Made by a program: the position numbers and the translations under genes
Shown here: piece by piece, positions 2,911 through 28,102 of the stretch
How the letters are laid out: every line of letters starts with the position of its first letter
Position numbering within the stretch: position 1 is the first letter of the stretch
The notes under the pieces: model-generated
What the model was told of the DNA's origin: nothing
The model's database searches: none
The model's input: only the letters and a program-made list of their open reading frames with translations
Assembly: GCF_008189285.1 (NCBI RefSeq)
Contig: NZ_CP043315.1
Coordinates: 30,001 to 62,000 of the forward strand
DNA: 32,000 bases
From: Candidatus Saccharimonadota bacterium
GTDB taxonomy: Bacteria; Pseudomonadota; Alphaproteobacteria; CAJXXZ01; 1604HC
Direction of reading: 5' to 3'

Positions 2911-3026
2911 AACTTTATTATCCCTGAATGATAAAGTAAAACTTTATTATCCCTGAATGATAAAGTAAAACTTTATTATCCCTGAATGATAAAGTAAAAC
3001 TTTATTATCCCTGAATGATAAAGTGA
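2893..3026. repeat. 29-bp tandem repeat, about 4.4 copies, seeded by the 3' end of dcd
   Basis: ATGATAAAGTAA recurs at 2899, 2928, 2957 and 2986, with a truncated copy at 3015. The unit is atgataaagtaaaactttattatccctga. The first copy is the last four codons plus the stop of dcd. Confidence 0.95.
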
Positions 3027-3550
3027 TAAATTTGAATTCTCTTTTGTGATTATAAAGCAACACTTAGAGCATTTAGTTATGAAGTGAAGCTTATTGTTTC
3101 TTTTGATTAAAATAAACTTCGATGCTTCTATGCGTTTTACAATCTTATATGGTTGTCATTTTATTAATATTTTTCTCCAATAGAGCAAATATTCATTTCA
3201 ATTTCAACTTTACAAATTATTTAATTTTAAACAAAGCCTTTATTTTAGTTGCATTAAAAAGCTTTGTTAGATTTATTCTTTAATAAGAAATGACTTAGCT
3301 TTATTTAATTATAAATAGAGTTTTATTCTTTTTGTATTAATTAACATCATTATTCCATAAGTAAGCTTTGTTATCTTCATCATCAATAAATACTGTGCTG
3401 ACTGATGAAGCCAAAATAATATGGTTCATTTTTTTCATAATTACCTCTGATAAATTATTAAAGAAATTGATTAATTAAATATAAAAAGAATTGATTAATT
3501 AATATAAATTTATTTTGATCTGCAGAAAACTTAAAGTTTTTGCGAGTTGA

Positions 3551-3850
3551 TTATTTTGACTTACGTAAAGCTTTTTCTTGATTAAATAGCGTTCGGAAAG
3601 TTTTTGTAAATGTGATTTTAGCATCATATTTGCCTTCCACTTCTTGTTTTTCTCCAGTCCTTGGGTTTGTTTTTATTGCTGGCTCTCTCCATTTCGGCTC
3701 TGATTTGAAGAATCCTCCCCAAGAAACTGCATCATCATCTAGCATCGATTCAGTTATTATAAGCTTAAAAGCAGATAAAACATCATCTACTTCGTTTATT
3801 TTTATATGTAATTTTTTTGCTATAGCTTGCTTTAATTGCGTATAATTCAT
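3551..3850 (-). CDS. HU/IHF-family DNA-binding protein
   Basis: 99 aa, with an AGGAGG Shine-Dalgarno directly upstream (taggaggaatATG). MNYTQLKQAIAKK..., ITES, and the arm region KTNPRTGEKQEVEGK match the HU/IHF fold pattern (HU: RNPQTGKEI). Confidence 0.85.
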   Translation of the reverse strand: MNYTQLKQAIAKKLHIKINEVDDVLSAFKLIITESMLDDDAVSWGGFFKSEPKWREPAIKTNPRTGEKQEVEGKYDAKITFTKTFRTLFNQEKALRKSK

Positions 3851-4080
3851 ATTCCTCCTAAGAAATTATATAACTTAAGGTATGATACATTAAAGTTATA
3901 TTTTTAAAAAGAGACACTCTCTTGAAGAAATGTAACTAGAAATAGTAAATTTTTTATTAATTTTTTCATATTAATATTAAAAATACAAAAAAATCATATT
4001 TTTTGAATAAATTTATAGATTTACTGTTTTTTGAAATTGCAAAAATATATCTAAATTAATATATTGGCTTTTGATTTAAG

Positions 4081-4275
4081 TCAGGTAGGTGATTTAGATC
4101 TTGCTTTAGCTATTTTACGAACTCTTTCTTTCTTTTGCATTGCTTTTTGCTCAGAAGGCTTTAAAAAATGCCTTCTCCTTTTTTGTTCAGCGCCTATTCC
4201 TTCTCTTTGAACGAATCTTTTTAGAAGTTTCCATGCTTTCTGAATTTCATTATTAACAACATTAACTGATATCAT
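4081..4275 (-). CDS. rpsU: 30S ribosomal protein S21
   Basis: MISVNVVNNEIQKAWKLLKRFVQREGI..EQKRRRHFLKPSEQK resembles S21 (E. coli ..[28 protein letters not shown]). I prefer ATG at 4275, preceded by GGAGAAG, over the longer ORF start at 4305. Confidence 0.85.
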   Translation of the reverse strand: MISVNVVNNEIQKAWKLLKRFVQREGIGAEQKRRRHFLKPSEQKAMQKKERVRKIAKARSKSPT

Positions 4276-4747
4276 AATTCTTCTCCATTTCTGCAATAAT
4301 ATCATATTAGTTAAACAATGAAAACGCGATTAATATTTATGCGAAGTTTATAGTTTGTAAATTATTTCTATTTGATGCAATTTGCATAATTCTGCATTTT
4401 TTAATTTATATAGATATAGATAATTATGACAGATAAATTAATCAAATATATTCAGATATTAATATACAGCACAATTCTCTTTATTTTTCAGCAATGCCCT
4501 TTTCTTTATTTTTTTTGATTTAAGGATATGTGTATAGAATGTGATTTTAAACTTTTTTGGAAGAGCAAAATTTATGATTGAATTTTTATCTTGATTTAAT
4601 AGATAGCAAAGAGGTTTTTTAAGCGCTTAAATATATAATATAAATTAATATGCAATTTATAATCGCTTTTGCATAATTAAATAATGCGTAATTTGTGTGT
4701 AAAACACTGAACATATGGAGCTATATGAAAAAAGTTAAAAAAAGGTG

Positions 4748-4776
4748 TTGACAATTTATGCGGTATGAGAGAAGAT
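4748..4776 (+). promoter_or_regulatory. candidate rRNA operon promoter with upstream A-tract
   Basis: TTGACA (4748-4753), 17-nt spacer, GAAGAT (4771-4776; a weak -10 that keeps A2 and T6). It is preceded by an A-rich UP-like tract (atgaaaaaagttaaaaaaagg) and lies about 100 nt upstream of the 16S 5' end. Confidence 0.3.
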
Positions 4777-4810
4777 ACTTGTGTTGGACAAAAAGTCTGT
4801 TTAAAAAGTG

Positions 4811-4841
4811 TTTTTTGAAGGATAGCAAGCTAGCTGTTAAG
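4811..4841 (+). other. 16S leader half of the precursor processing stem
   Basis: 4811-4841 (ttttttgaaggatagcaagctagctgttaag) pairs with 6412-6442. By hand, 31 positions give 1 mismatch and 1 G-U. This bracketing of mature 16S is typical of RNase III processing stems. Confidence 0.8.
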
Positions 4842-4873
4842 GATGACCAAGTGTTTACTTGGGACTTTGTTTT

Positions 4874-6390
<1,517 letters not shown>

Positions 6391-6411
6391 TAGGGATTTA
6401 CCCTATTTATA

Positions 6412-6442
6412 CTTAATAGCTAGCGTGCTATCCTTCAAAAAA
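6412..6442 (+). other. 16S trailer half of the precursor processing stem
   Basis: Complement of 4811-4841 (cttaatagctagcgtgctatccttcaaaaaa). Confidence 0.8.
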
Positions 6443-6446
6443 AATA

Positions 6447-6520
6447 GGGCTGGTAGCTCAGTTGGTTAGAGCGCACGCTTGATAAGCGTGAAGTCGGAGG
6501 TTCGAGTCCTCCTCGGCCCA
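6447..6520 (+). tRNA. tRNA-Ile (anticodon GAT)
   Basis: 74-nt cloverleaf gggctggtagctcagttggttagagcgcacgcttGATaagcgtg...ggttcgagtcctcctcggccca. No CCA is encoded. It is in the standard spacer position. Confidence 0.95.
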
Positions 6521-6525
6521 TTTAC

Positions 6526-6598
6526 GGGGGTGTAGCTCACTTGGGAGAGCGCATGCTTTGCACGCATGAGGTAGTCGGTTCGATCCCGACCATCTCCA
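6526..6598 (+). tRNA. tRNA-Ala (anticodon TGC)
   Basis: 73-nt cloverleaf gggggtgtagctca...ctttGCAcg...ggttcgatcccgaccatctcca, with the G3:U70 identity pair. No CCA is encoded. Confidence 0.95.
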
Positions 6599-6608
6599 CT
6601 TTGTCCGT

Positions 6609-6628
6609 TTTAAAAGTATAAGAAATAT
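6609..6628 (+). other. 23S leader half of the precursor processing stem
   Basis: 6615-6628 (agtataagaaatat) is perfectly complementary to 9534-9547 (atatttcttatact). With one bulged A (9548) the pairing extends to 6609-6614 / 9549-9554. Confidence 0.7.
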
Positions 6629-6689
6629 TTAATACATTCTCAATTTAATGATTGTTAAAAGTAAATTAACTATATAACATTCATTGAGT

Positions 6690-9490
<2,801 letters not shown>

Positions 9491-9533
9491 ACGCAATGTT
9501 TGTTATGTTATTACTAATCATAAATTTTTGTTT

Positions 9534-9554
9534 ATATTTCTTATACTATTTAAA
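9534..9554 (+). other. 23S trailer half of the precursor processing stem
   Basis: Complementary to 6609-6628 (see the leader half). A degenerate second copy of this trailer motif follows at about 9565-9590. Confidence 0.7.
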
Positions 9555-10178
9555 TTTTTTGACTTTTTGTTTATACTGTTTAAATTTTTAATATTATACT
9601 TCTTATTATTTTATATATTTTGTTGAATATGCGATTGTATCGTTATGTTCAAATGTTAATATAGGTATGTTTGATAATTTGATATATTTTATTAGAGTTA
9701 TTTCCTAAGAATATTAAATTTGTTGATACAATTTATTTTTCTAATTTTTTAATAATTTGATATTTCATTGTATATGCAGTGTTGTAAATTTACTACATTG
9801 ACTTATCTAAATCTTGTCTTTGAGTGTTAAGATAAAATTGCAACTTTATTGTGCTAAATTCATTGCATTTGTATTGATTGATTTAAATAAGTAAGAGTTG
9901 AAGTGCAAAATATTTTATATTTACAAAAGTTCTTCAAAGTCAGCCAAGTCTATTAAATTGCTTTTAAATAAACTGTTCTCATATTTTAGATTTCTTATAA
10001 CAATTATATTAAAGCTACTTAAATTAGATCGATAAGAATAGTTGAGAGCAATTATTTAGATTGATAAAATTGGTTATTTTTTGCGCATTCTTTTAATTTT
10101 AATTTTAAGATAATTTGATATTTTATTATAATTTTAATTTAAAGCTTAATTTAAAAAACTATTCTTTTTTAATTAATA

Positions 10179-11175
10179 GTTGCTTAAAAATGAAAGGCAG
10201 GCCATCTTCATATCAGTCAATAAACTTCATGCCTTAATGCATATTGTTAGATTGCTTAAGGGTGAGTTTACAATGAAAAGTTTTTTCTGAACATATTGAT
10301 AGCACAGCTTTTATGGCGCTGATATTAGAAAGGCGAAAAGAATCATTATCGCGCACAGCTATAGTCTGAACATCTTGTGTAATTTAAAACTCAAAACAAT
10401 TAGTTTGTTCTGATGTTTGAAATCTGCCTTAACTAGATTGCTTAAATATTTAATCCTTAAATTCCCATTAACTAGATCACTTAAGTATAAATTTCAATGG
10501 ATAGAATCAAAATTCTTTTTTGATCATATAGCTGCTTATTAGTTTTTTTCTACAAAAATTTAATTAAGACTAAGACTGTATTATAAAAGTGCAAGTGTTT
10601 AGAATTAACCTATTAAGATTTTTCTTTGTGAATTTTTTTTCAGTTTCGATAACGAAAAATTCTTTAATCCTATGAAGTCATAAGCATTAAAGAGTTGTTA
10701 GAAGCGAGAAAACTGGAGCGAATCGTAAAAACGTGAGAAACATTTTCACTGAAAACTCAAAACTTCCTATGAAGCTTTTCTTTTGGTTCAAGTAGAGTTA
10801 GCTTACCTTAAAATGAGAGTGTTTGTTGCAGTTAATAGCAATAGAAACAACGCTACTTAGCTCTGTAGATGTGATGAAATGAACTGCTGCAAGTTTTCAT
10901 TGAGCTAAACTTGTTTTTCCTGCTATTGTGCAGATGATTTATTCTGATGATTTTGAAATCCTTGATTATTTAATGCGCATTTATAGAGCACTGAAATAAA
11001 TTTGCAAAACTTTATATATTTTTGTTGTTGAAATATATTGCTTCCAATATGAGTGAAGTTTGGATCGAGACGCACTTACTTGTTATGTTTGTGAATTTAT
11101 TTGCTTTTTTACTGTAAATGCATTTATTTCTATTAAGCGCTTCAAGAGAAGTTAGCAATGCGAATTGAAATATTT
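10179..11175 (+). pseudogene. decayed, internally deleted 23S rRNA fragment (relic of a second rrl copy)
   Basis: Colinear, same-strand similarity to the intact 23S. The core 10522-10925 aligns by eye to 7762-8200. In the best stretch, 10732-10775 vs 7988-8031, 32 of 44 positions are identical (cgtgagaaacattttcactgaaaactcaaaacttcct vs tgtgagaaacattttcgctgaaagtccaaggtttcct). Weaker anchors: gttgcttaaaaatgaaaggc (10179) vs gttgctaggggtgaaaggc (7441); ttttatggc (10310 vs 7603); gagtgaagtt..ggatcgagac..gcacttact (11051) vs cagtgaagtt..ggatagaccccgtgcacctttact (8610-8680). The outer boundaries are uncertain. Confidence 0.65.
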
Positions 11176-11655
11176 ATTAGATTTATATAATTTGTAGCGT
11201 TTTATCAGTTTTGCCATTGAGCCATCTCAAAGACAATTTCTTGTGCCATATATAGGTTGTGAAATATTTATTACACATGCATCAGTTTTGCCTTAATTTG
11301 CTTCAAAAGAAATTGTTTATCCAGTGTTAATTGAAATATTTGCCTTTTAACAGTTCGCAGGAATTTCCTTTTTTGATTAATGTGGATTTTTATCTTTTTT
11401 ATTTTCTATGATTTTGTTCTATATACTTGATATCACATAGTAAAAAAAGATAGCTTTAATTTTTTTTTGTTTTCTGGCTTTGTGTTGTATGTTTTTTTAT
11501 ATAGCTAAAATAGTTAATTAAAGCGAAAGTTCTTCAATTTGACTTATTTGACTTGTTAAATAATACAATAAGTCATTTTTAATTTTAATGATTATGAAAT
11601 TGAGAAATTATGAAATTGAGAATTTTAATTTAATTAACTAGTGTATTTTTTTAAA

Positions 11656-13524
11656 TTAATAATCATAGGAATTATAGCTCATATCAAACGCTTTGTTAAA
11701 AATTGTATTATTTCCCCCTTTTCCTGGTATTGCAAATATTACTTTCTTGAATAGTCCTTGGAATTCCTTTTCACTTAGCACTTCTTTGTAGCATTGTGTA
11801 ATGAATTCTGGGCTATTTCCAAATACTCCACATCCCCATGCTCCTGTTATGAATGTATCGCTTCCAGTTATGTATGCAGCCTTAAGCTGGTCACGCATTT
11901 TAGCTTTGGTGATATTTTTGAACTCTTCTACATTTCCTTTTGAAAGATTGAATGCATATTGATCAAATTTTTTGTTTGATGCTCCTTTGCTAAGTTTGTC
12001 ATTTATGCAGTATGCTGCTTGTACAACTACTGCAATATTATGAATTTTGTCAAATGGTTTATAGTCATCTTTCTTCGCTTTTCTGATCAATGAAACTCCT
12101 GGAGCGTAGATTATTTCGTTGTGAGCAATTGGATAAAGCGATGAATGTTGTTTTATTCTACTTTGAAGAATATGGAATAAATTTGTCGATCTGCACAAAT
12201 CCTCTTCCTGTGCTGATGCTCCTTTTTTGAATCCTCCGCACATGTCTTCTTTGTTTGCAAAGTCTAATACAGCAACTTTAAGCCCTTGTTGAATTGCGGA
12301 ATCAGATGCTGTGATGGAATCTGTATTCGCAACTTCTATTTTAGTGACATGTGTAGTTTTAGATTTTAATTTTTCATTGAATCTTTTGTTTAATTCTGTG
12401 GAATTATTTTTATACGTACTATTTGCTGCTTTTTTTGCGTTTAGACTTGTTTCATTATCTACATTCCAGTCATGGTGTTGGTTAGCAAAGATAGTTAATT
12501 CATAATCTCCTCTTGTGCTTCCTGGTTTGTATGCGCTCCAAGATTCTCCTGTTTTTGACACAATAACATCTGCAATCAATGCGCTTCCTGACCTATCTTT
12601 TGCATATTCAGGCTCTATCATAAGAGATGATCCTCTTTCATCTTTTTCAACAGAAGTAGAGGTAGAAGCTCCTTTTCCACCAGCAGATTCAAGTCCTTTT
12701 GACCCTTTGCTATAAGATTCTTGTTGTATTACAGAAGATCCTCTTCCAGCGGTAACTGCAGATCCTCTTCCAGCGGTAACTGCAGATCCTCTTCCACCAG
12801 AGGTAGAAGCTCCTTTTCCACCAGCAGATTCAAGTCCTTTTCCACCTTTTCCACCAGCTTCAACAATCTCTACAGTTTTTCTTGGTTGAGATGCGCCAAA
12901 TCCACTAGGTTCTGCATTTTTTGATACATTATTGTAGAAATCATATTTTTCTGTAATGACTGCGTATCCTTCTATGTTTATAATTTTAAATTCTACCCCT
13001 ATGCATTTTTCAATAGCTAATACCTGTTCACGTGCTAAATTATCCTCAGAAAATTTGTCTGTTTCTTTGAAATGTTGAGCCGTTTTAGATTGCGAGGAAT
13101 GCATGTGATTCAATAGATCTTCTATGCTTCTATTTTTATTAATAGCCTCTTTAATTATTTGTTCTTGCTTATCACTGAGGCCTCGATATGTTGATTTAGC
13201 TACTTGTGTTAACAATGCTGTAATTATTGCGTAATAATCACTTCCATTTATTTCTCCACGCTTAGTTTTTTCATGCAAGCTTTTAATGGTAAAATTGACC
13301 GATTGCGCATTGTCTTTAATCAGATCTCCAAGTTCGTTTGCTAAACGTGAATTCAATTTTAATAATTCAAGTGAATGTATGCTGACTCCTATATCTTGCA
13401 TTTTAATTGAGTTAGAATGCAATGCATTATAATCTATTCGATCCTGTTTTAAATTTATGCAATTTAAGTATGATGTCAATAAAAGTGGAATAATGTTTAA
13501 TATTTTCATAATATATTCTAACAT
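11656..13524 (-). CDS. multidomain protein with C-terminal microbial-type PARG / TIGR02452-like macrodomain (putative ADP-ribosyl hydrolase)
   Basis: The ORF is open to TTG at 13542, with ATG candidates at 13524 and 13509. The C-terminal ~230 aa carry LKVAVLDFANKEDMCGGFKKGASAQEEDLCRSTNLF and FITGAWGCGVFGNSPEF. I recognise these as the Gly-loop/QEE and diphosphate-loop blocks of the DUF2263/PARG_cat_microb family. The N-terminal ~200 aa have no recognised motifs, and the middle is a Gly/Ser/Lys/Arg repeat linker. Confidence 0.75.
   Translation of the reverse strand: MLEYIMKILNIIPLLLTSYLNCINLKQDRIDYNALHSNSIKMQDIGVSIHSLELLKLNSRLANELGDLIKDNAQSVNFTIKSLHEKTKRGEINGSDYYAIITALLTQVAKSTYRGLSDKQEQIIKEAINKNRSIEDLLNHMHSSQSKTAQHFKETDKFSEDNLAREQVLAIEKCIGVEFKIINIEGYAVITEKYDFYNNVSKNAEPSGFGASQPRKTVEIVEAGGKGGKGLESAGGKGASTSGGRGSAVTAGRGSAVTAGRGSSVIQQESYSKGSKGLESAGGKGASTSTSVEKDERGSSLMIEPEYAKDRSGSALIADVIVSKTGESWSAYKPGSTRGDYELTIFANQHHDWNVDNETSLNAKKAANSTYKNNSTELNKRFNEKLKSKTTHVTKIEVANTDSITASDSAIQQGLKVAVLDFANKEDMCGGFKKGASAQEEDLCRSTNLFHILQSRIKQHSSLYPIAHNEIIYAPGVSLIRKAKKDDYKPFDKIHNIAVVVQAAYCINDKLSKGASNKKFDQYAFNLSKGNVEEFKNITKAKMRDQLKAAYITGSDTFITGAWGCGVFGNSPEFITQCYKEVLSEKEFQGLFKKVIFAIPGKGGNNTIFNKAFDMSYNSYDY
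12658..12841. repeat. intragenic repeats: 43-bp perfect direct repeat pair flanking 24-bp tandem repeats
   Basis: agaggtagaagctccttttccaccagcagattcaagtcctttt occurs at 12658-12700 and 12799-12841 (encodes KGLESAGGKGASTS twice). gatcctcttccagcggtaactgca occurs in tandem at 12737-12760 and 12761-12784, plus a partial third copy (encodes the GRGSAVTA repeats). Confidence 0.95.
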
Positions 13525-13628
13525 TTTAACTTTTGAAGTCAAGTAAATTTTTATTGTTGCAATTAGGCAAATTTAATCAATTGAATAAATAGGTTTTGCA
13601 ATTGTATATATATTTGTTACAGTTATAC

Positions 13629-14912
13629 ATGACTATTGGAATTATTTTAGCTGCTGGAAAAGGGTCTAGATTTGGCTCAAAATCCAAGCTATTTGTCGAA
13701 TTATGTGGTCAATATGTTTTAGACTATCCGATTAATTTATGTAAAGAATTAAGAATAGAAGAAATTAACTTGGTTGTTAAGGATAGAGAAGAAGATTTGG
13801 ATAAATGCAATATTGAAGGGTGTAATATTATTTTACAATCCGATAAAAAAGGAACTGGTGGAGCCACTTTGTCTGCAGTTGAGAAATTTCAAAAACCTAT
13901 TAATGGTAATGTTGTTATATTATTAGGGGATTGTCCTTTGGTGCTTGAGAACACAATAAGTCAAGCATTGAATAAATTAGATAATTACGATCTTATAATT
14001 GGAGGAGTTAAATCAGATTCAGATCATTCTTATGGGAGAATTATTTCAAAAAATGGAACAATTTTATCAATAGAAGAAAGTTCTGTTAAAAGTGAAATTA
14101 CAGAATTTCGTAATGCTGGTTGGATGGTTTGTAATGGAAAATATCTCAATGATTTGCTTAGAAAGATTCCTTTAATTAATGGAGAATATTATTTAACAGA
14201 ATGTGTTAGAATAGCTAATGAATTTGATTTGCGAGTTGGAATGATTGAAGTTAGTGAAGATATTGGAATAAATACAAAGTTGGATTATATTAATGCATCA
14301 TCTGTATTACAGAAAAGATTTAGAGAAAATGCTATAAATAAAGGAGTTTTGATGATGGATCCTGATGCGGTTTATTTTTCAGCAAAAACTACTTTTGAAG
14401 ATGATGTGCAAATAGATCCATATGTGACATTTAAAGGGAATGTAAAATTGCAATCTGGAAGTCATATCAAATCATTCTCTAGCATAGAATCTAGCACAAT
14501 AGGGCAGAATGCTAAGATTGGCCCATTTGCTAATCTAAGAAATGGAACGATAGTTGGGGAAAAAGTAGAGATTGGATCTTTTGTAGAGACAAAAAAATCT
14601 GTATTTAAAAAGCAAAGCAAAGCAAAGCATCTCAGCTATATCGGAGATGCTGATATAGGAGAGGGGTCTAATATTTCTGCAGGAGTCGTATTTTGCAATT
14701 ACGATGGAGTTAATAAAAACAAATCCAAAGTTGGAAAAAATGTTTTTCTAGGGGCTAATAGCTCTTATATTGCTCCATTGGAATTAGGAGACAATTCTCA
14801 AATTGGAGCTGGTAGCGTGATTACTAAAAATGTAAAAGATAATTCTCTTGCTGTTGCACGTTCTAAGCAAAATGAGTATAAAATAATAAATAAAAATAGG
14901 AGCAAAGATTAA
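13629..14912 (+). CDS. glmU: bifunctional GlcNAc-1-phosphate uridyltransferase / glucosamine-1-phosphate acetyltransferase
   Basis: N-terminal nucleotidyltransferase loop IILAAGKGSRF. C-terminal left-handed beta-helix hexapeptide repeats (YIGDADIGEGSNISAGVV..GKNVFLGANSSYIAP..GDNSQIGAGSVI). I prefer ATG at 13629 over the longer TTG at 13596. Confidence 0.9.
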   Translation: MTIGIILAAGKGSRFGSKSKLFVELCGQYVLDYPINLCKELRIEEINLVVKDREEDLDKCNIEGCNIILQSDKKGTGGATLSAVEKFQKPINGNVVILLGDCPLVLENTISQALNKLDNYDLIIGGVKSDSDHSYGRIISKNGTILSIEESSVKSEITEFRNAGWMVCNGKYLNDLLRKIPLINGEYYLTECVRIANEFDLRVGMIEVSEDIGINTKLDYINASSVLQKRFRENAINKGVLMMDPDAVYFSAKTTFEDDVQIDPYVTFKGNVKLQSGSHIKSFSSIESSTIGQNAKIGPFANLRNGTIVGEKVEIGSFVETKKSVFKKQSKAKHLSYIGDADIGEGSNISAGVVFCNYDGVNKNKSKVGKNVFLGANSSYIAPLELGDNSQIGAGSVITKNVKDNSLAVARSKQNEYKIINKNRSKD

Positions 14913-14914
14913 AT

Positions 14915-16675
14915 ATGTGTGGTTTGATAGGTATAGTTCATAAAGAAGGCAATGTTTGCGAAAAAATACACAAGGGATTGGAATATCTTCAATATAGAGG
15001 ATACGATTCTTGTGGTATTTCTGTCATGGAAGATGGGGAATTTTACGCAAATAAACAAATAGGGCCTATTTCTGGTCTGAAAAAAAATTGCCATAGTGGA
15101 AAAATAGGAATTGGACACACTAGATGGGCTACTCATGGATGCATCAGTATAAAAAATACCCATCCATTTATGCATAAAAATCTTGCAATTGTTCATAATG
15201 GGATTATAGAAAATCATTCTGAAATTAGAGACAAATATCCTGATTATCATTGGAAAACAGGATGTGATACAGAGTCTATTTTGAAGTCCACATATGAGCA
15301 TTTAAAGGAATATAGAAATATTAACGATGAAATTACTGATCACGCTGATTGGAATTATGCATTTGAAAAGATGTCAGAAGAATTAGACGGGTCATTTGCT
15401 GTTGCATTTATGGATTTAAGCTACCCTGACACTTTATTTTTTATAAGAAAGGGATTAAGCCCTTTATCAATAGCTGTTTCAGATGACTTTGGAGCAATTG
15501 CATCTGATTGCCTTGCATTATCCGATATGTCTGATCATGTTATTGATATAGAAAATGGCCAATATGGATATGTAAAAGCTGGAAAATATGAAATTAAGCC
15601 AGGAAATATAAATGAAAAAAGACATATTATTAAATCTCCTAAAATGTCAGAGAAATCTCATGATACATGGTTTGCTCATGAGTTCCACACTCAACCAATG
15701 GTTTTGTCTAATGCGCTTCATAAATTTAACAGCGCTTTTACTTTATCAGATTTTGAGAAGCCTAAATTTATAGATATATTAGGATGTGGAAGTTCTTACT
15801 ATGCAGGATGTGTAGGTAAGTATTGGATTGAAAAATATGCAAATATTATGTGCAGAGTTCAAATGTCTTCTGAGTGGAAAGATTTAAAAGGATACGATAG
15901 AACCATTGCACTTATTTCTCAATCAGGAGAAACAGCAGATACTTTAGCAGCTTTTGGAAAACAGCTTGGCGCACATAAGACTGTCGGTTTTGTGAATACT
16001 TTAGGAAGCAGCTTATCTAGAGCGGTAGATCATGTTGTGCCTACTTTTGTTGGTCAAGAAGTTAGCGTTGCATCTACAAAAGCCATGACTGGACAAATGC
16101 TATCTTTATTTTTATGGGCTACAAAATTATCTGGAGTCAACAAACAGGATGAATTAACTGAATTATTTGAAAAAATGTCTTGTTTAATCAATAAATTGCC
16201 TGAAAATACTAAAGAAGTAATAGATATATGTGCAAATGTTGATGATTTGTTTATTCTAGCCAAAGGGAATTTGGTTCCTATAGCGTATGAAGGTGCGTTA
16301 AAAATTAAAGAATTGGCATATGTTCATGCAGAAGCAATGAGCGCTAGTGAATTAAAGCATGGTCCTTTAGCGATGATTAATCCAGATTCATCTCAGGCAA
16401 TTATATTTCTAGCCCCGTCTTCAAGCTCTCTTTGGAGCAAGATGCTTTCTGCTGTTGAAGAGGTTCATAGTAGAGGTGGGAAGGTCATTGTTATTAGCGA
16501 TAAGCCTGAGAAGTTTAATGTTAATTATTCTGTAAAAATGCCATATATAGAGGAAGATTTAGCCCCATTTTTGTATATATTATCCATGCAGTGGATTGCT
16601 TATGGATTAGCAATAAGAAAAGGAAATGCAATTGATATGCCTAGAAATCTTGCAAAATCTGTCACAGTAGAATAA
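14915..16675 (+). CDS. glmS: glutamine--fructose-6-phosphate aminotransferase
   Basis: N-terminal nucleophile MCGLIGIV, GHTRWATHG, SIS-domain motif SQSGETADT, and the family-typical C-terminus ..KSVTVE. It begins 2 nt after the glmU stop. Confidence 0.95.
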   Translation: MCGLIGIVHKEGNVCEKIHKGLEYLQYRGYDSCGISVMEDGEFYANKQIGPISGLKKNCHSGKIGIGHTRWATHGCISIKNTHPFMHKNLAIVHNGIIENHSEIRDKYPDYHWKTGCDTESILKSTYEHLKEYRNINDEITDHADWNYAFEKMSEELDGSFAVAFMDLSYPDTLFFIRKGLSPLSIAVSDDFGAIASDCLALSDMSDHVIDIENGQYGYVKAGKYEIKPGNINEKRHIIKSPKMSEKSHDTWFAHEFHTQPMVLSNALHKFNSAFTLSDFEKPKFIDILGCGSSYYAGCVGKYWIEKYANIMCRVQMSSEWKDLKGYDRTIALISQSGETADTLAAFGKQLGAHKTVGFVNTLGSSLSRAVDHVVPTFVGQEVSVASTKAMTGQMLSLFLWATKLSGVNKQDELTELFEKMSCLINKLPENTKEVIDICANVDDLFILAKGNLVPIAYEGALKIKELAYVHAEAMSASELKHGPLAMINPDSSQAIIFLAPSSSSLWSKMLSAVEEVHSRGGKVIVISDKPEKFNVNYSVKMPYIEEDLAPFLYILSMQWIAYGLAIRKGNAIDMPRNLAKSVTVE

Positions 16676-17452
16676 TTTTAAATTAATTCATAGTTATCAT
16701 TATTATTTTTGAAATAACTTGCATTTAGAAAGCAATCTTTTTCAATAATTTGACTAAGCCAGAAGGGCGATTATATCAAATCATATACAATTTCTTTATT
16801 TAATTTTTATGTCATGAAATTTGCATTATTTTTTTTAATATCTACAAATGTAAATTATTATAAGCTTGAAAATACTTAATTAAATTTAAGAGAATTTATT
16901 TAAACAATTTCATGTTTAAGAAATTTTTATTCGCATGCAAACTCTTCTAGTTTGTAATATCAGCCCCTTTTTGCATTAATTTTAGATGCTACAGTAAATT
17001 ATTAACTGTTATCTCAAATCTAATGAAGTGTAATTTCTTTAATAAACAAATGGCATTTTTAGCGATGAATTTCTTAAAGCTTTTCTTAGAATATTAGTTG
17101 CTGATTAATTTATGCAATTCAAATATTGCTTGCTAATATTATTGCATTAACAATGAAAAAAGATTGATTTTTGATGTTAATCTTTCAAGTTATGGCAATA
17201 ACACTCCAAACTTGATCATGAAATGATGCAAGTTTTTATAAATTAGATTTAGTTGCTTGATAATATCTATTAACGTTAGATTTATTGATTTATTTGCATA
17301 TTAGATGTTTTATTTTTACTTAATTATTAATGCATTTTGGTATTTTTTAGCTCATATTCTATCTGCTAATATTTTATGCTTTCTAATTATTCGATTTTTT
17401 CATGCTAAATATAATTTATAAATATTATTGTAAGTTATAATTATTTCTCAAA

Positions 17453-18751
17453 TTATTTTATCATTTGCTTAATATCTTGTAGCTCTGATTCAAGAGAATC
17501 TATGCTTTGTTCAATTTTCTTTATGCTATGCATTGCCGTTGTATGATCTTTCCCCCCAAGAAATCTTCCTATTTCTGGAAGAGAGCTATCTGTAAGCTCT
17601 CTACACAAATACATAGCTATTTGTCTTGGTTTAAGAATATTCCTTTTTCTAGATTTTGAGCAAAGCTCATCTTTTTCTATATTATAGTATTTACAAATTG
17701 AATCAATAATTAGTTCAGGTGTTATAGGTTTTTTATGCTGAACAAATTCCTTTAAAATTCCTTTAACTGTATCAAGATCAAGGTCTTTTTTGAAAAAATC
17801 TACATATGCTATAACTCTCATCAATGCTCCGCCTAATTCTCTTATGCTAGACTTAACGTTTTCAGCTATAAACTGAAGAATTTCATCATTGATATTTCTT
17901 CCTATAGATTTTTCCTTTAATATGCTTAATCGCAATTCATAGTTTGCGGGATGCAAATTCACAACTAATCCGCTACCCAATCTTGATCTCAATCTTTCTT
18001 CAATTCCAGATAATTCTGAAGGAGGCTTGTCTGCAGAAATAACCAATTGTTTTCCTTGAGATATTAGATACACAAAAGTGTGAAAAAATTCTTCTTGAGT
18101 TGAGTCCTTGCCTGATAAAAATTGAAAATCATCAATCATCAATATATCAAAAGATCTTAACTCTTCTTTGAAAGACATCATATCTTTTTGCTTTAATGCG
18201 TTGATAAATTTTAACATGAACTGCTCAGCAGATAAGTAGCAAACATTATTATTGTGGAAATTTTTCTTAATATACCATCCAATTGAATGCATTAGATGAG
18301 TTTTGCCAAGCCCAACAGGTCCGTATAAAAACAAAGGATTGAAAATTCTTTCTTCAGATTGCGCTATTCTTAATGCTGATGTGTAAGCCATTTCGTTTGA
18401 TCTTCCAACAATGAAAGTTTCAAAAACCATATCTTTGCTTAAGGGAAGTGAATATTCATTTTTATTATTATACGATATTTCATTTTTTTGATTATTGATT
18501 TTAGAAGAAGATTCTTTTGCTAAAGTTTCCTTTACTTCGAATTCAATAGAAAGATTATGTTTTTTTGCGATATCTTGAACAATATCTAAATAGTGATTTT
18601 TAATCCAATTAGCAATGAATTTAGTTTTTACGCATGCATATAGCTTATCTTTAACTATATTAACCTCTACACCATCAAACCAACTACTCACAGTAGAGTC
18701 GCCAAGCTTGCTTTTTAGTTCAGTTAATATATCTTGCCAAACGCTGCTCAT
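17453..18751 (-). CDS. dnaA: chromosomal replication initiator protein DnaA
   Basis: Walker A LYGPVGLGKTHL, Walker B ILMIDDFQF, sensor region, and the C-terminal DNA-binding signature LGGKDHTTAMHSIKKIE. Confidence 0.95.
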   Translation of the reverse strand: MSSVWQDILTELKSKLGDSTVSSWFDGVEVNIVKDKLYACVKTKFIANWIKNHYLDIVQDIAKKHNLSIEFEVKETLAKESSSKINNQKNEISYNNKNEYSLPLSKDMVFETFIVGRSNEMAYTSALRIAQSEERIFNPLFLYGPVGLGKTHLMHSIGWYIKKNFHNNNVCYLSAEQFMLKFINALKQKDMMSFKEELRSFDILMIDDFQFLSGKDSTQEEFFHTFVYLISQGKQLVISADKPPSELSGIEERLRSRLGSGLVVNLHPANYELRLSILKEKSIGRNINDEILQFIAENVKSSIRELGGALMRVIAYVDFFKKDLDLDTVKGILKEFVQHKKPITPELIIDSICKYYNIEKDELCSKSRKRNILKPRQIAMYLCRELTDSSLPEIGRFLGGKDHTTAMHSIKKIEQSIDSLESELQDIKQMIK

Positions 18752-18773
18752 AAAATTCTATTCATCAAAAAAT

Positions 18774-19037
18774 TCAAATTTTATTAAATAATTTAGCTAA
18801 TCTTTCAATTTTTCTATCAGCATTAGCAGGGTGAACTATTCTTTTTCTTCCACATCTAGCTATGCAAGATTGAGTTTTTCTGAAAAGCTCAACATTTTTT
18901 TCTGCATTTTCGATAGATTTTCTCAATGCTTTAATAGAAGTTCTCATTGTGCTTAGGGCAGATTTATTTCTACCCCTAGCTCCTCCAATATTCTCATCTC
19001 TGCGAATACGTTTTTTAGTAGCTGTATGATTAGCCAT
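18774..19037 (-). CDS. rpsT: 30S ribosomal protein S20
   Basis: 87-aa basic protein MANHTATKKRIRRDE..., S20-like throughout. It lies directly upstream of dnaA on the same strand, as in many alphaproteobacteria. Confidence 0.9.
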   Translation of the reverse strand: MANHTATKKRIRRDENIGGARGRNKSALSTMRTSIKALRKSIENAEKNVELFRKTQSCIARCGRKRIVHPANADRKIERLAKLFNKI

Positions 19038-19102
19038 TATTTACCTCTTTTGACATATACATAATTCTACAACATATTTTCATATCAATAAATAGCATTT
19101 TA

Positions 19103-19627
19103 CTATTTCTTCCTTCCAATAAATGATTCTAATATTGTCATTGCTGACAATGCGTCATCTGTTTCTAATTTATGACCCCCACTATACATTGATGAGACGT
19201 ATGAGCTTGTACATCTTTCATCTCGTTTTACTATTGGTCCTTTCCAAGATTTTTGTAAATTATCAATAAATTTTTGAGTTTCTTTGCATTGAAAGGCTTC
19301 TTCTCCCTTCATATTTAAGGGCCATCCTATAATAACCCCAACAACATCTCTTTCTTTTATTAATTGTAAAACTATATCTACAATAAATTTTTTTGGCCCA
19401 TATACTCCATTAGGGATTGCAAGTTCCTGATTATAATCGCAGAAAGCTACTCCAGTTCTTACTTCTCCATAATCTAATCCAATTAACACTCCAGATGTGG
19501 GAATACTTTCTTCTGATATTGAGATATTATTTCCTGATTCAGATGCAATGCTACTTGCCCCTTCAATGCTATCTTTTTCTATTGAGATTTTATCTTCTGA
19601 TTTTGAGATGCTGTCTATTGTTTGCAT
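19103..19627 (-). CDS. ruvX: YqgF/RuvX putative pre-16S rRNA nuclease / Holliday junction resolvase-like protein, with N-terminal Ser/Ile/Glu-rich extension
   Basis: The core LIGLDYGEVRTGVAFCD ... VVGVIIGWPLNMKGEE matches the RuvX family. The ATG at 19627 overlaps the stop of the upstream helicase as TAATG, which supports the long form. Confidence 0.85.
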   Translation of the reverse strand: MQTIDSISKSEDKISIEKDSIEGASSIASESGNNISISEESIPTSGVLIGLDYGEVRTGVAFCDYNQELAIPNGVYGPKKFIVDIVLQLIKERDVVGVIIGWPLNMKGEEAFQCKETQKFIDNLQKSWKGPIVKRDERCTSSYVSSMYSGGHKLETDDALSAMTILESFIGRKK

Positions 19628-21573
19628 TATCTTTTTGCCAAACTATTTAATGGGACAATTTTTACTACATTGCCAAATTTAACTTGAGCATGATGAACTC
19701 CAGTTTCCTCAACAATTCCATGTCCAAATATATCATGAAATACTTTGTTTCCATTTTTCTTGTGCTTAAATGACTGGAAAGTTGAATTTTTTGAATCTAG
19801 CTCTTTTAAAAATCTAGATGGAGTTGTAGACATGTATTTTCCATGCTGCATTCTGCTTTGTGCGTATGATATTGCTAAGTAAGATCTAGCTCTTGTTAGC
19901 GCAACATATGCTAATCTTCGCTCTTCTTCAGTGTTAGCTCTTGATCTTATATGAGGAAACAACCCTTCTTCCCATCCAGGCAAAAATACGATATCAAATT
20001 CCAATCCTTTTGCTGCATGAACTGTCATCAGTTGAACATCTTTATCATCATCAGACTTTATATTGCTCCATAGAACATAATTTGCATATTCTTCTGCTCC
20101 TTCAAACTCTCCAACAGATTCCAGCCATCTGTTTAGATTTTCTTGTCTAGGAGGTTCAGATGCTTCAAACAATCCAGATTCTTCAATTATTTTTTTAGCT
20201 AATTTTGAAAAAGGAAGGGGAGAGCTTTTCCATGAATCAAATTGATCTAGAATTTCCTTTAATTTATTATTTGTAGATTCATTTAATCCGCTATTGTCTA
20301 TTTTATCTTTTACAGAAGCTCCAGGAGAGCTTTCTATTTTATCTATAGTAGTTTTTCCTATTCCTCGTTTTGGAGATTGAATCAATCTGCTGAAAGCCAT
20401 GAAGTCATTTGGATTAGCTAGAAATCTAATGTATGAAACAGCATCTTTGATTTCAGCTCTATCAAGCAATTGAATCGATCCAACAATAGAATATTTGATA
20501 TTTGCATTAAGAAGGCTTTCCTCCATAGAGTCCATTTGCGCTGAAGTTCTGAATAATATTGCTACAGATGCGTCAGGATTTTTTTCTTTTTCCTGAGCAA
20601 TAATTTTGCAAATCTCGCTACTTTCTTCTTTTTCATGAATAGCAACAAATACATCTACTTTTCTATCTGAAACAGAATTTGGCAGTAATTCTTTGTCTAT
20701 TCTATTTTTATTGAATTTAATAAGTGAGTTTGCGCTTTTTATAATCTTATCAGTAGATCTGTAGTTTTGGTCCAATATAATTCTTTGTGAGTTTTTAAAT
20801 TCTTCACCAAAGCCAAGAATGTATTTTATATTTGAGCCTCTAAATGAGTAGATTGCCTGATCTGGATCTCCAACACAGCATAATTGATTTTCTTTTCCAC
20901 ATATTAGTTTTAGCCATTCATGTTGGACTTCGTTTATATCTTGATACTCATCCACGCAAATTAGTTTATATTGTTCTTTATATTGCGCCAAAACTGATGG
21001 GTTATTTTTCCATAATTTAATTGCATTAACTAACAAGTCAGCAAAATCCATCGCATTCATTTCTTTTAGTCTTTTTTGATATATCTCTCCAATATCTCTT
21101 TCTGCAGGATTTAGGTCTCCGAATGTGCCTTTTTCTTTTGCTCTTTGAATTAGCTCCAAAATCTGACTTGGCCTAGAATCTTTGAATTTCATATGACTCA
21201 TAATTTTTCTTATTAACTGCAATTGATCATCATATGAAAGAACTTGAATGTTCTCAAATCCTAATAATTTTTCATGAGTTTGCACGATATTTAAAGAGAT
21301 TCTATGAAAAGTCCCTATTGAAATCATAGATGCAAAATGGCCCAAATGAGATTCTAGCCGTTTTTTCATTTCATGCGTGGCTTTATTAGTGAATGTAGTT
21401 GCCATTATTTGATTAGGAAGAACTAATCCCTGATCAATGTAATGACATATCTTTGATACAATTGTTTTTGTTTTACCAGTTCCCGCTCCAGCTACTATAA
21501 GCAGGTTATCTTTGCACTGAACCGCTTTTTCCTGGTTTGGATTTAAATTATGCATATAGCTAATTTGTACCAC
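19627..21573 (-). CDS. uvrD: UvrD/Rep/PcrA-type SF1 ATP-dependent DNA helicase
   Basis: Motifs LLIVAGAGTGKT (I), TFHRI, CVDEYQDIN (II), VGDPDQAIYSFRG (III), YRS, TVHAAKGLEFD (V) and AYVALTRAR (VI). The longest ORF starts at GTG 21573; an alternative start is ATG 21555 (MHNLNPNQEKAV). Confidence 0.9.
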   Translation of the reverse strand: MVQISYMHNLNPNQEKAVQCKDNLLIVAGAGTGKTKTIVSKICHYIDQGLVLPNQIMATTFTNKATHEMKKRLESHLGHFASMISIGTFHRISLNIVQTHEKLLGFENIQVLSYDDQLQLIRKIMSHMKFKDSRPSQILELIQRAKEKGTFGDLNPAERDIGEIYQKRLKEMNAMDFADLLVNAIKLWKNNPSVLAQYKEQYKLICVDEYQDINEVQHEWLKLICGKENQLCCVGDPDQAIYSFRGSNIKYILGFGEEFKNSQRIILDQNYRSTDKIIKSANSLIKFNKNRIDKELLPNSVSDRKVDVFVAIHEKEESSEICKIIAQEKEKNPDASVAILFRTSAQMDSMEESLLNANIKYSIVGSIQLLDRAEIKDAVSYIRFLANPNDFMAFSRLIQSPKRGIGKTTIDKIESSPGASVKDKIDNSGLNESTNNKLKEILDQFDSWKSSPLPFSKLAKKIIEESGLFEASEPPRQENLNRWLESVGEFEGAEEYANYVLWSNIKSDDDKDVQLMTVHAAKGLEFDIVFLPGWEEGLFPHIRSRANTEEERRLAYVALTRARSYLAISYAQSRMQHGKYMSTTPSRFLKELDSKNSTFQSFKHKKNGNKVFHDIFGHGIVEETGVHHAQVKFGNVVKIVPLNSLAKR

Positions 21574-26569: not shown

Positions 26570-26692
26570 ACATTATCATGATTAAATATGAATGTATAGT
26601 AAGTAAAACAGTAAGTAATTTTCAATTGATCTATAAAAAAATGCTTATCGATGATAAAATCTAATACTGAGTTTATGCTGAAAAGAGGAACC

Positions 26693-28102
26693 ATGAGCAT
26701 ATTAAATAAAATGATAATGAATGGAAAAGAAATATTCCCCTTAGTCGAGGGAGGAAAGGGGATTTCTGCGACAAATGGGGAAAGCTCTGGAGCATGGGCT
26801 GCATGTGGTGGAATTGGAACTATTTCTGCTGTATATGGCGATGTTGTAGAAGATAAATTAGTTCAAATCAAAGGAATAGATGGGTTTGATGGCCCAACAA
26901 GAGATGAAAGATCATTGCAATTGGCTGAACATACAATCAAAGCAACTGTATCTCAAATTAAAATTGCTAAAGAGAGATCAAATGGAAATGGTCTTTTGAA
27001 TATTAATTTACTTTGGGAGTTAGCAAAAACTAAAGAAATAATGCATGGCGTTTTGGAAAAAGCAGGTCATTTGTTAAATGGAGTTACGTGTGGAGCGGGA
27101 ATTCCTTACAAATTAGCTGAAATAGTATCAAAATATGGATTGCTATATTACCCAATTGTCTCATCTGCATTAGTTTTTAAGATTTTATGGAAGCGAGCTT
27201 ATTCTAAATACAAAGAAACTCTTGGCGCTGTAGTGTATGAAGATCCTTGGGTTTCTGGAGGTCATTTAGGGATTAGTAATAGGGAAGACCCTAAAAAAAG
27301 AGAAAGTGCACTAGATAGAGTGATTAGCTTGAGAAAAACTATGAATGAATTAGGTTTGCAATCTACTCCTATTATTATGGCTGGAGGAGTTTGGCATCTT
27401 AGTGATTATGAAAAAGATTGGATTAACAATGATTTTCTACAACCTATAATGTTTCAACTTGGAACAAGGCCATTGTTGACACAAGAAAGTCCTATTTCAG
27501 ATGAATGGAAAATGAAGCTGTTTGATTTGAAAGAAGGAGATGTAGAGATAAATAAATTTAGCCCTACAGGATTTTATTCTTCTGCTGTTGGAAATTCGTT
27601 TTTGCGAGAATTGCAGGGCATAAGCGAAAGACAAGTTGCATATTCTAGAGAAAAAGATGAAAATTTCTCCGCAGAATACAAACAAGGAAGAAGAAGTATT
27701 TATTTTCACAGTGATGATTTGACCAAAGTTCTTGATTGGAATGCAAAGGGATATGATAAAGGAATGTATACCCCAGATGAAACAATAGTTTTTGTAACTG
27801 AAGAAAAGTCAAAGCAAATTGTTCAAGATCAAATTAATTGCGTTGGATGTTTGAGTAATTGCAAGTTTAGTAATTGGTCTAACTCGGAAAGTGGAACCAC
27901 TGGAATGAAGCCAGATCCTAGATCTTTTTGCATATACAAGACATTGCATAATATATCTCACGGGCAATCTGTTGATAATAACTTGATGTTTGGTGGATAC
28001 AATGCATATAAATTTGGACAAGATCCATTTTATTTCAAGAATGGAAAGAAGTTCATTCCTACAGTTAAAGAATTATTCGAAAGAATGTTGACTGGATATT
28101 AA
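26693..28102 (+). CDS. nitronate monooxygenase (NMO)/FabK-like FMN TIM-barrel oxidoreductase with long C-terminal extension
   Basis: FPLVEGGKGISA..GGIGTIS, VTCGAGIP, EDPWVSGGHLG and PIIMAGGV..FQLGTRPLLTQES align by eye with FabK/NMO blocks (QGGM..GGLG, TTGAGNP, EGMEAGGHIG, VIAAGGI..VQVGTRF). I prefer ATG at 26693, preceded by AGAGGA, over ATG at 26651. The C-terminal ~180 aa extend beyond the usual barrel and contain CVGCLSNC. Confidence 0.6.
   Translation: MSILNKMIMNGKEIFPLVEGGKGISATNGESSGAWAACGGIGTISAVYGDVVEDKLVQIKGIDGFDGPTRDERSLQLAEHTIKATVSQIKIAKERSNGNGLLNINLLWELAKTKEIMHGVLEKAGHLLNGVTCGAGIPYKLAEIVSKYGLLYYPIVSSALVFKILWKRAYSKYKETLGAVVYEDPWVSGGHLGISNREDPKKRESALDRVISLRKTMNELGLQSTPIIMAGGVWHLSDYEKDWINNDFLQPIMFQLGTRPLLTQESPISDEWKMKLFDLKEGDVEINKFSPTGFYSSAVGNSFLRELQGISERQVAYSREKDENFSAEYKQGRRSIYFHSDDLTKVLDWNAKGYDKGMYTPDETIVFVTEEKSKQIVQDQINCVGCLSNCKFSNWSNSESGTTGMKPDPRSFCIYKTLHNISHGQSVDNNLMFGGYNAYKFGQDPFYFKNGKKFIPTVKELFERMLTGY

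Follow-up and report, generated by a model that had tools for sequence, protein, structure and literature searches.

Overview of the locus

The window analysed here is a 32,000-nt stretch of the genome of Candidatus Cytomitobacter indipagum (positions 30,001 to 62,000 of contig NZ_CP043315.1), a Holosporales endosymbiont with a reduced genome of 628,024 bp. An earlier reading of the letters alone (the sequence-only reading) had guessed a reduced, host-associated alphaproteobacterium, which agrees with this identity. The gene studied here is located on the minus strand, and its product joins an orphan N-terminal module and a low-complexity linker to a poly(ADP-ribose) glycohydrolase (PARG) macrodomain. 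The open reading frame (ORF) spans 11656-13542 and has 628 codons when counted from TTG at 13542, with the stop codon at 11656-11658; residue numbers in the text follow this count. Alternative in-frame ATG starts are present at 13524 and 13509, and the NCBI/GenBank entry (P0001, 617 aa) begins with the ATG at 13509. The gene is not without annotation, as this entry already carries the name 'TIGR02452 family protein'. At the base composition of the window a stop is expected about every 13 codons, and a frame of 628 codons would stay open by chance with P ~2e-22. The ORF and the two motif blocks that had been picked out in it were both confirmed, the blocks at 12202-12240 and 11815-11844. The features of the gene are given below, with the basis of each assignment in brackets.

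11656 to 13542, minus strand: whole ORF (628 codons from TTG 13542; 617 aa from ATG 13509)
13450 to 13509, minus strand: hydrophobic N-terminus MKILNIIPLLLTSYLNCINL, candidate Sec signal peptide or signal anchor (hydropathy)
12877 to 13509, minus strand: orphan N-terminal module, aa 12-222, probably helical (homology, Pfam, AlphaFold2, Foldseek)
12622 to 12876, minus strand: Gly/Ser/Ala/Lys/Arg low-complexity linker, aa 223-307 (composition and DNA repeats)
11659 to 12585, minus strand: bacterial-type PARG macrodomain plus N-terminal helical extension, aa 320-628 (hidden Markov model (HMM) search, phmmer, AlphaFold2, Foldseek, profile alignment)
12202 to 12240, minus strand: catalytic loop CGG-X7-QEE, aa 435-447, CGGFKKGASAQEE (alignment to the PARG of T. 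curvata, TcPARG)
11815 to 11844, minus strand: diphosphate-binding loop GAWGCGVFGN, aa 567-576 (alignment to TcPARG)
11698 to 11736, minus strand: ribose-cap region FAIPGKGGNNTIF, aa 603-615 (profile alignment)

A bacterial-type PARG macrodomain at the C-terminus

By all sequence and predicted-fold criteria tested, the C-terminal part of the protein belongs to the bacterial-type PARG family. In HMM searches, Pfam PF10021 (PARG_cat_microb) matched residues 363-487 (E=2.3e-21, 77.2 bits, cutoff 23.5), and NCBIfam TIGR02452 matched residues 379-616 (E=1.2e-29, 103.7 bits, cutoff 50) with 230 of 266 profile positions covered. The family had been named in the sequence-only reading, and both HMM matches as well as the fold described below confirmed it. 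When phmmer was run against proteins of solved structure, TcPARG (3SIG, E=1.2e-16) and D. radiodurans PARG (DrPARG; 5ZDA, E=6.7e-15) were recovered, and in these alignments QEE fell on QEE and GAWGCGVFGN on GAWGCGVFGN.

A family alignment of 113 sequences was made from residues 305-628 of the query and 112 homologues found in a search of 5.8 billion proteins. The homologues showed 22-35% identity over the alignment, and PF10021 was present in all of them except P0097, for which no Pfam domain is recorded. The AlphaFold2 model of the PARG domain built on this alignment had a mean predicted local distance difference test score (pLDDT) of 82.6 and a predicted template modelling score (pTM) of 0.83. 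In a Foldseek search of the PDB with the model, the best 13 matches were all TcPARG or DrPARG entries (E 5e-17 to 3e-14, target TM 0.73-0.78), and generic macrodomains came next at E ~1e-5. The structural alignment to TcPARG 3SIH/3SIG gave E~5e-17, TM 0.77-0.78 and 23-24% identity. The N-terminal helical extension that is specific to PARG macrodomains was also present in the predicted fold of the query, and the domain is about 310 aa long (aa ~320-628) instead of the ~230 aa first estimated.

Signature residues and ribose cap

The glutamates E446 and E447 occupy the positions of E114 and E115 of TcPARG, and Q445-E446-E447 is invariant in 112 of 112 relatives. The spacing ahead of QEE is X7 in the query, within the X6-8 of the family. 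F574, at the position of TcPARG F227, is present in 111 of the 112 relatives. All eight invariant columns of the alignment are kept in the query (L426, Q445, E446, E447, G570, C571, G572 and F615), and the query has the consensus residue at 33 of the 48 columns with at least 70% conservation, the mismatches being mostly conservative. Alignment and fold match together place QEE and the Gly loop at the predicted ADP-ribose pocket.

The first Gly of the GGG signature is C435 in the query (C435-G436-G437). Cys is found at this position in five of the 112 relatives, and four of these five (P0011, P0029, P0043 and P0047) read PCGGFK[ST]GA, which is near the MCGGFKKGA of the query. We infer from the residue conservation and the model that the catalytic domain is intact and, despite CGG, competent for catalysis.

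In the family, the choice between exo and endo cleavage is reported to be set by R268 of TcPARG, which is paired with D261, and by T267 of DrPARG (PMC6445106). This position lies four residues ahead of the invariant Phe and is N611 in the query, the majority residue of the family. In the query an Asp partner is lacking and the loop is shorter than that of TcPARG by three residues, so that the Arg268-Asp261 pair is absent. Without this Arg-Asp cap, internal (endo) or bulky substrates are probably admitted, and the query is probably not a strict exo-enzyme capped in the manner of TcPARG.

Orphan N-terminal module and repeat linker

No homologue of the N-terminal module was accepted. An exhaustive phmmer search with aa 12-235 against 1.84 billion representative proteins returned the query itself and two weak matches, P0114 and P0115. 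These two were rejected, since they are repetitive proteins in which the score is the sum of four to eight repeat matches of ~25-29 bits each. No noteworthy Pfam match was obtained for residues 12-222, the best being RasGAP_C at E=0.047. The single-sequence AlphaFold2 model of the module was helical, with a pLDDT of 39.7 that is too poor for a claim about the fold, and a Foldseek search with this model gave no match at E<=0.001 and only generic long helices. It had been noted from the sequence that this part of the protein held no recognisable motif, and it was indeed an orphan among the 1.84 billion representatives. The chance that the frame stays open across the first 320 codons of the ORF is P ~1e-11, and therefore the module is coding.

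The segment EKCIGVEFKIINIEGYAVITEKYDFYNN of the module (window ~12919-13050, minus strand, aa ~165-208) weakly resembles the 67-aa repeat unit of P0114 (VGIDGYATFAEKYYENNM), with 36% identity over 44 aa. The single repeat matches are insignificant, and the resemblance is probably due to chance.

The linker, which had been described as a Gly/Ser/Lys/Arg repeat and proved to be real, contains 22% Gly, 18% Ser and seven G-[KR]-G motifs. Its DNA carries a 63-nt duplication (12658-12720 and 12799-12861, 87% identity). Its two copies bracket three tandem units of 24 nt (12731-12802), which match the reference unit at 75-100% identity (92-100% for the first two). This nested repeat signature points to a recent, slippage-type expansion of the linker.

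The query has 425 residues ahead of the invariant Leu of the core; among the 112 relatives the median is 84 and the longest such stretch 187. The architecture is unique among the 112 family members sampled, in agreement with the view of the sequence-only reading that it had not been described before, and no full-length homologue was found anywhere in these searches, which would have spoken against a host-directed role had it been common in free-living bacteria.

An internal in-frame ATG, Met308 (SLMIEPEY; window 12619-12640, minus strand), is located just ahead of the PARG domain, with GAAAGAGGA 9 nt upstream. Met308 could be a relic of the start of a stand-alone PARG or an internal start. However, Arg-Gly codons (AGA GGA) make strings like the Shine-Dalgarno-like GAAAGAGGA all along the linker.

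Hydrophobic N-terminus

The hydrophobic N-terminus seen in the sequence-only reading is real. In MKILNIIPLLLTSYLNCINL, 18 uncharged residues come after MK. The highest hydropathy over 9 residues was 2.62, which is in the range of exported proteins of the relatives (2.61 for a DegP-like protein and 2.80 for a 787-aa protein with ...NVWA|G), while eight cytoplasmic controls had values from -0.09 to 2.14. Signal peptidase I (lepB) is encoded in the window. The genome of C. indipagum was reported with Sec, a reduced type II secretion system (T2SS)/type IV pilus apparatus, a type VI secretion system (T6SS) in modified form and 106 predicted signal-peptide proteins, and the genome paper makes no mention of PARG, macrodomains or ADP-ribosylation (10.1101/719211). 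Export of the protein is plausible on this basis.

Genomic neighbourhood

The gene is flanked by glmU, which is divergent from it (13596/13629), and by a long gene-free region with an rRNA relic, as had been proposed. Housekeeping genes make up the surroundings in the window: holB, metG, dcd, glmU, glmS, dnaA, ruvX, uvrD, ftsQ, plsC, asd, rnc, lepB, rsmD and iscAUS. An intact rRNA operon, 16S-tRNAIle-tRNAAla-23S, is located at 4873-9489. The segment 10536-10921 on the plus strand is a decayed internal piece of 23S, colinear with 7780-8195 of the intact 23S at ~63% identity; it was detected by nhmmer (E=1.6e-31) and also by blastn, and it escapes Rfam cmscan. This fragment hints at a second rRNA copy in the past or at the scar of a rearrangement. 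No 5S rRNA was found after the 23S: there was none in the 32 kb at the gathering threshold, and none at E<=1 in 9400-11800.

Between the 23S and the gene, a stretch of 2.2 kb (9490-11655) contained no ORF of at least 60 aa, no six-frame Pfam signal and no Rfam match. No decayed partner gene was detected within 9490-11655 by the six-frame Pfam scan. No ADP-ribosyltransferase (ART), poly(ADP-ribose) polymerase (PARP) or sirtuin was found among the window ORFs of at least 100 aa or in the six-frame translation of 9490-11655, so the lack of an ART partner that had been noted from the sequence holds for both. PADLOC defence models gave no match.

Around the candidate starts of the gene, a promoter-like sequence (TTGACT-16 nt-TAGAAT with an extended TG) is present at 13515-13542 on the minus strand. 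Its predicted transcription start site lies at about ATG 13509, and the mRNA is possibly leaderless. Promoter-like matches are frequent in the AT-rich DNA of the window (20 observed versus 11.5 expected).

Two other stretches of the window were recorded. Upstream of the 16S gene, 2911-4872 is a second stretch of ~1.9 kb with no real ORF of at least 100 aa and a GC content of ~0.25. On the plus strand, 26651-28102 is an ORF of 483 aa with a match to NMO (nitronate monooxygenase / FabK-like) of 27.2 bits, below the cutoff of 28, and it is longer than typical members.

Absence from relatives and origin of the gene

GlmU orthologues were used as anchors in the relatives; their identities were 61% in C. 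primus, 58, 55 and 53% in three genomes of ~560-622 kb, 68% in a closer relative and 42% in N. abundans. No PARG gene or remnant was present at the glmU loci of C. primus and the three relatives, and none of the 112 PARG homologues lies on contigs of the ~560-622 kb genomes. The gene is absent from the Cytomitobacter/Nesciobacter relatives sampled.

In C. primus and one other relative (L007 and L010) the order is (uvrD-)ruvX-rpsT-dnaA-glmU-glmS, with ruvX to glmS on one strand, and in the genome of a third relative dapF lies ahead of glmU. In the window of C. indipagum (13596-21573), dnaA, ruvX and uvrD are inverted relative to glmUS and lie downstream of glmS. This inversion therefore places the PARG-extension gene and the 23S relic at a rearrangement breakpoint, which is close to dnaA and hence probably near the replication origin.

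The GC content at third codon positions (GC3) of the gene was 0.22-0.25, compared with 0.19-0.22 for its neighbours glmU and glmS. As these values agree, the acquisition was not recent and the gene has been ameliorated; it is old enough for amelioration and still intact in a genome of 628 kb. Horizontal acquisition is the most likely origin of the gene.

In one relative with a genome of 621,866 bp (L011, GlmU 55%), the T6SS genes ImpA_N, IcmF-related_N and DotU are located at 14693-20137, directly downstream of glmS. No T6SS gene was found in the part of the window that corresponds to this region.

Proposed function and alternative explanations

The enzymes of this family use one signature Glu to protonate the glycosidic oxygen and to position a water molecule at the oxocarbenium intermediate (PMC8120803, PMC6445106, PMC11833690). 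They cut the ribose-ribose bonds of poly(ADP-ribose) (PAR) and spare the protein-proximal mono-ADP-ribose (PMC8120803), and the family also cuts the identical bond that the T6SS toxin RhsP2 forms on RNA 2'-OH (PMC11833690), as well as ADP-ribose on phosphorylated nucleic-acid ends. Since the protein-proximal mono-ADP-ribose is spared, action on mono-ADP-ribosylated proteins is not expected here, and the mono-ADP-ribosylation that the sequence-only reading had included among the targets was dropped.

The explanation that we prefer is that the protein leaves the cytoplasm of the symbiont and acts on substrates of the host, with a probability of roughly 45%. It would be a lineage-specific bacterial-type PARG, horizontally acquired, that hydrolyses the O-glycosidic ribose-ribose bond (2'-OH to C1'') of PAR chains and of 2'-O-ADP-ribosylated RNA. 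E446 and E447 would act like E114 and E115 of TcPARG, and F574 and the Gly loop would hold the diphosphate-ribose. The catalytic domain would be joined to the ~210-aa orphan helical module through the recently expanding G/S/K/R repeat linker, and the signal-like segment would target the protein to the Sec translocon, with the envelope or release as its destination. Once exported, the enzyme could encounter ADP-ribose polymers from the host, or nucleic acid that carries ADP-ribose.

The host is the diplonemid Diplonema aggregatum, in which the symbiont lives free within the cytoplasm and, at times, in the mitochondrion, without a host membrane around it (PMC5845003). Because the symbiont is naked in the host cytoplasm, the enzyme could reach host substrates. 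Among the host's euglenozoan relatives, T. brucei possesses a PARG eraser, and no eukaryotic supergroup, Excavata included, is without PARPs (PMC4245714). The host is the presumed source of the substrate. The host-directed reading is also backed by the unique extension, by the retention of a lineage-specific gene of 1.9 kb in a 628 kb genome, and by P0002, the nearest homologue of the query, in which a hydrophobic extension is likewise present. A more specific form of it appears rather unlikely to us: that this is the first case of an endosymbiont exporting a PARG-type ADP-ribosyl glycohydrolase to its eukaryotic host, where the enzyme erases PAR or 2'-O-ADP-ribosyl RNA and, for example, blunts a PAR-dependent stress, death or antibacterial response, with the orphan module serving in targeting and the G-[KR]-G linker perhaps binding PAR or RNA.

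Several observations weigh against host-directed export. There is no Shine-Dalgarno sequence ahead of any of the three candidate starts, and the start codon is uncertain. MKILNIIPLLLTSYLNCINL has no AxA-type cleavage site, the candidate sites being LTS|Y and LNC|I, and Asn and Pro lie within its hydrophobic core. The evidence for export comes from a crude hydropathy metric, on which a Rossmann strand of the cytoplasmic Asd scores fairly high too. For the crossing of the outer membrane there is a candidate route only, the reported T2SS being reduced. PAR in the host is presumably mainly nuclear. The known roles of bacterial-type PARGs are intracellular, namely in the DNA-damage response (PMC8120803) and in toxin immunity (PMC11833690). 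On the side of catalysis, three conserved positions are altered, P434M and Y473A (each shared by 0 of 112 relatives) and P511Y (1 of 112, P0002), and the three signature glycines, the first of which is replaced here, are described as essential in TcPARG in PMC8699189, which cites Slade 2011. Thus, of the secreted host effector that the sequence-only reading had proposed, the likeness of the N-terminus to signal peptides of the clade stood, the canonical cleavage motif was lacking, and export was not established.

A cytoplasmic role in immunity or repair is somewhat unlikely in our estimate, though it is a rival to be taken seriously, has a precedent in experiments and fits the patchy, partner-less distribution. 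The enzyme would remove ADP-ribose from RNA 2'-OH or from phosphorylated nucleic-acid ends after attack by ART toxins (RhsP2- or Tpt1-like) of competitors or of the host, and the N-terminal extension would serve as an accessory module or as a tether. SCO0909 of S. coelicolor and DRB0099 of D. radiodurans reverse the RNA ADP-ribosylation by RhsP2 and give E. coli protection equal to that of the cognate immunity protein, and PARGs are patchily distributed, often transferred and frequently missing in close relatives (PMC11833690, 2025), which is the pattern seen here. The lack of a cognate ART nearby is as for an 'orphan' defence enzyme, T6SS loci are present in relatives, one host can hold two species, and the open ribose-cap region suits RNA-linked substrates. 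However, the immunity PARGs characterised so far are single-domain proteins of ~250-280 aa without a signal-peptide-like N-terminus or a 300-aa extension, PADLOC was without a match, and the competitor is hypothetical, the 2018 paper describing one symbiont only in the host species (PMC5845003). The same extension and hydrophobic N-terminus would go unexplained if the enzyme served, like DrPARG, in turnover of the symbiont's own PAR and its DNA-damage response, which we consider very improbable. DrPARG does degrade endogenous PAR and helps recovery after UV (PMC6445106), and the gene lies among genes for replication and repair (dnaA, ruvX and uvrD), yet that synteny is inherited from the relatives; moreover, the window holds no PARP or ART, and equally reduced sister species manage without the gene.

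It is improbable, although less so, that the macrodomain is catalytically impaired, with ADP-ribose binding kept and hydrolysis lost or altered, so that the product is a binder, an adaptor or that of a decaying gene. The replaced signature Gly and the unique or near-unique substitutions listed above would fit such a protein, the gene adjoins, at a rearrangement breakpoint, the gene-free stretch of 2.2 kb that carries the 23S relic, and partially conserved signatures mean an uncertain function according to Perina et al. (PMC4245714). On the other hand, QEE, F574, the full diphosphate loop and all invariant columns are intact, CGG turns up again in an independent family subgroup, the frame of 1.9 kb has no interruption in an AT-rich genome, in which stop codons readily appear, and the AlphaFold2 model is confident over the core.

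Significance

GenBank already had the domain call; new are the architecture, the orphan status of the N-terminal module, the lineage specificity and the genomic setting. Bacterial-type PARGs are widespread and functionally enigmatic, and the examples known are cytoplasmic proteins of a single domain. If the protein described here is exported, host manipulation by erasers of ADP-ribosylation would extend from the Arg-specific macrodomains of Legionella to enzymes of the PARG class, and also to an endosymbiosis with a protist that is without any known effector function, and the retention of a lineage-specific gene of 1.9 kb in a 628 kb genome would be explained. If it is a cytoplasmic immunity protein, even extremely reduced endosymbionts would face ADP-ribosylating toxins. 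Either reading is testable, as expression of the catalytic domain is straightforward and the diplonemid and its Cytomitobacter are kept in culture.

Comparison with known systems

TcPARG (PDB 3SIG/3SIH; Slade et al. 2011) is the prototype of the DUF2263/PF10021/TIGR02452 family, and it has the fold, the QEE pair, GAWGCGVFGN and the helical extension in common with the query. It differs in that the query has CGG for GGG, no R268-D261 cap and ~310 extra residues at the N-terminus, whereas TcPARG is a single-domain cytoplasmic protein of 277 aa. DRB0099 of D. radiodurans (DrPARG, PDB 5ZDA-G) and SCO0909 of S. coelicolor share with the query the family and the expected chemistry on PAR and 2'-O-ADP-ribosyl RNA. 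T267 of DrPARG and N611 of the query are both uncharged at the ribose-cap position, which permits endo cleavage in DrPARG. Both DRB0099 and SCO0909 are single-domain and cytoplasmic, and DRB0099 shares its operon with genes for a ligase and a kinase/phosphatase, while the query gene is monocistronic, extended and maybe exported.

MavL and Larg1 (Lpg0081) of the intracellular Legionella are ADP-ribosyl hydrolases that are delivered into the eukaryotic host, where Larg1 acts at mitochondria on ADP/ATP translocases (PMC10989772, PMC9191684, PMC10951314), and they are the nearest precedent for a host-directed enzyme. Unlike the query, they are described in PMC8699189 as having no GGG-X6-8-QEE signature, and MavL as having no PARG activity. 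They hydrolyse Arg-mono-ADP-ribose, have a bacterial ART effector as partner (the SidE family and Ceg3) and are secreted by the Dot/Icm type IV secretion system (T4SS), whereas for the query no ART partner was found in the 32 kb and no T4SS is reported.

The best match to the query was P0002, a metagenomic PF10021 protein of 450 aa (Logan SRR21707668; 33% identity, E=8e-22). Of the family members, it alone shares with the query AAY in place of AAPN, but it has the canonical GGG. Its gene is located at 372-1724 of a 1.9 kb contig (L006) with a GC content of 37% and is followed by a terminator-like hairpin. P0002 also carries an extension, which is C-terminal and unrelated to the N-terminal module of the query; this extension comprises two hydrophobic segments (aa 342-387) and a tail rich in Lys. 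To judge from these features, P0002 is probably a second atypical bacterial-type PARG, one that is associated with a membrane.

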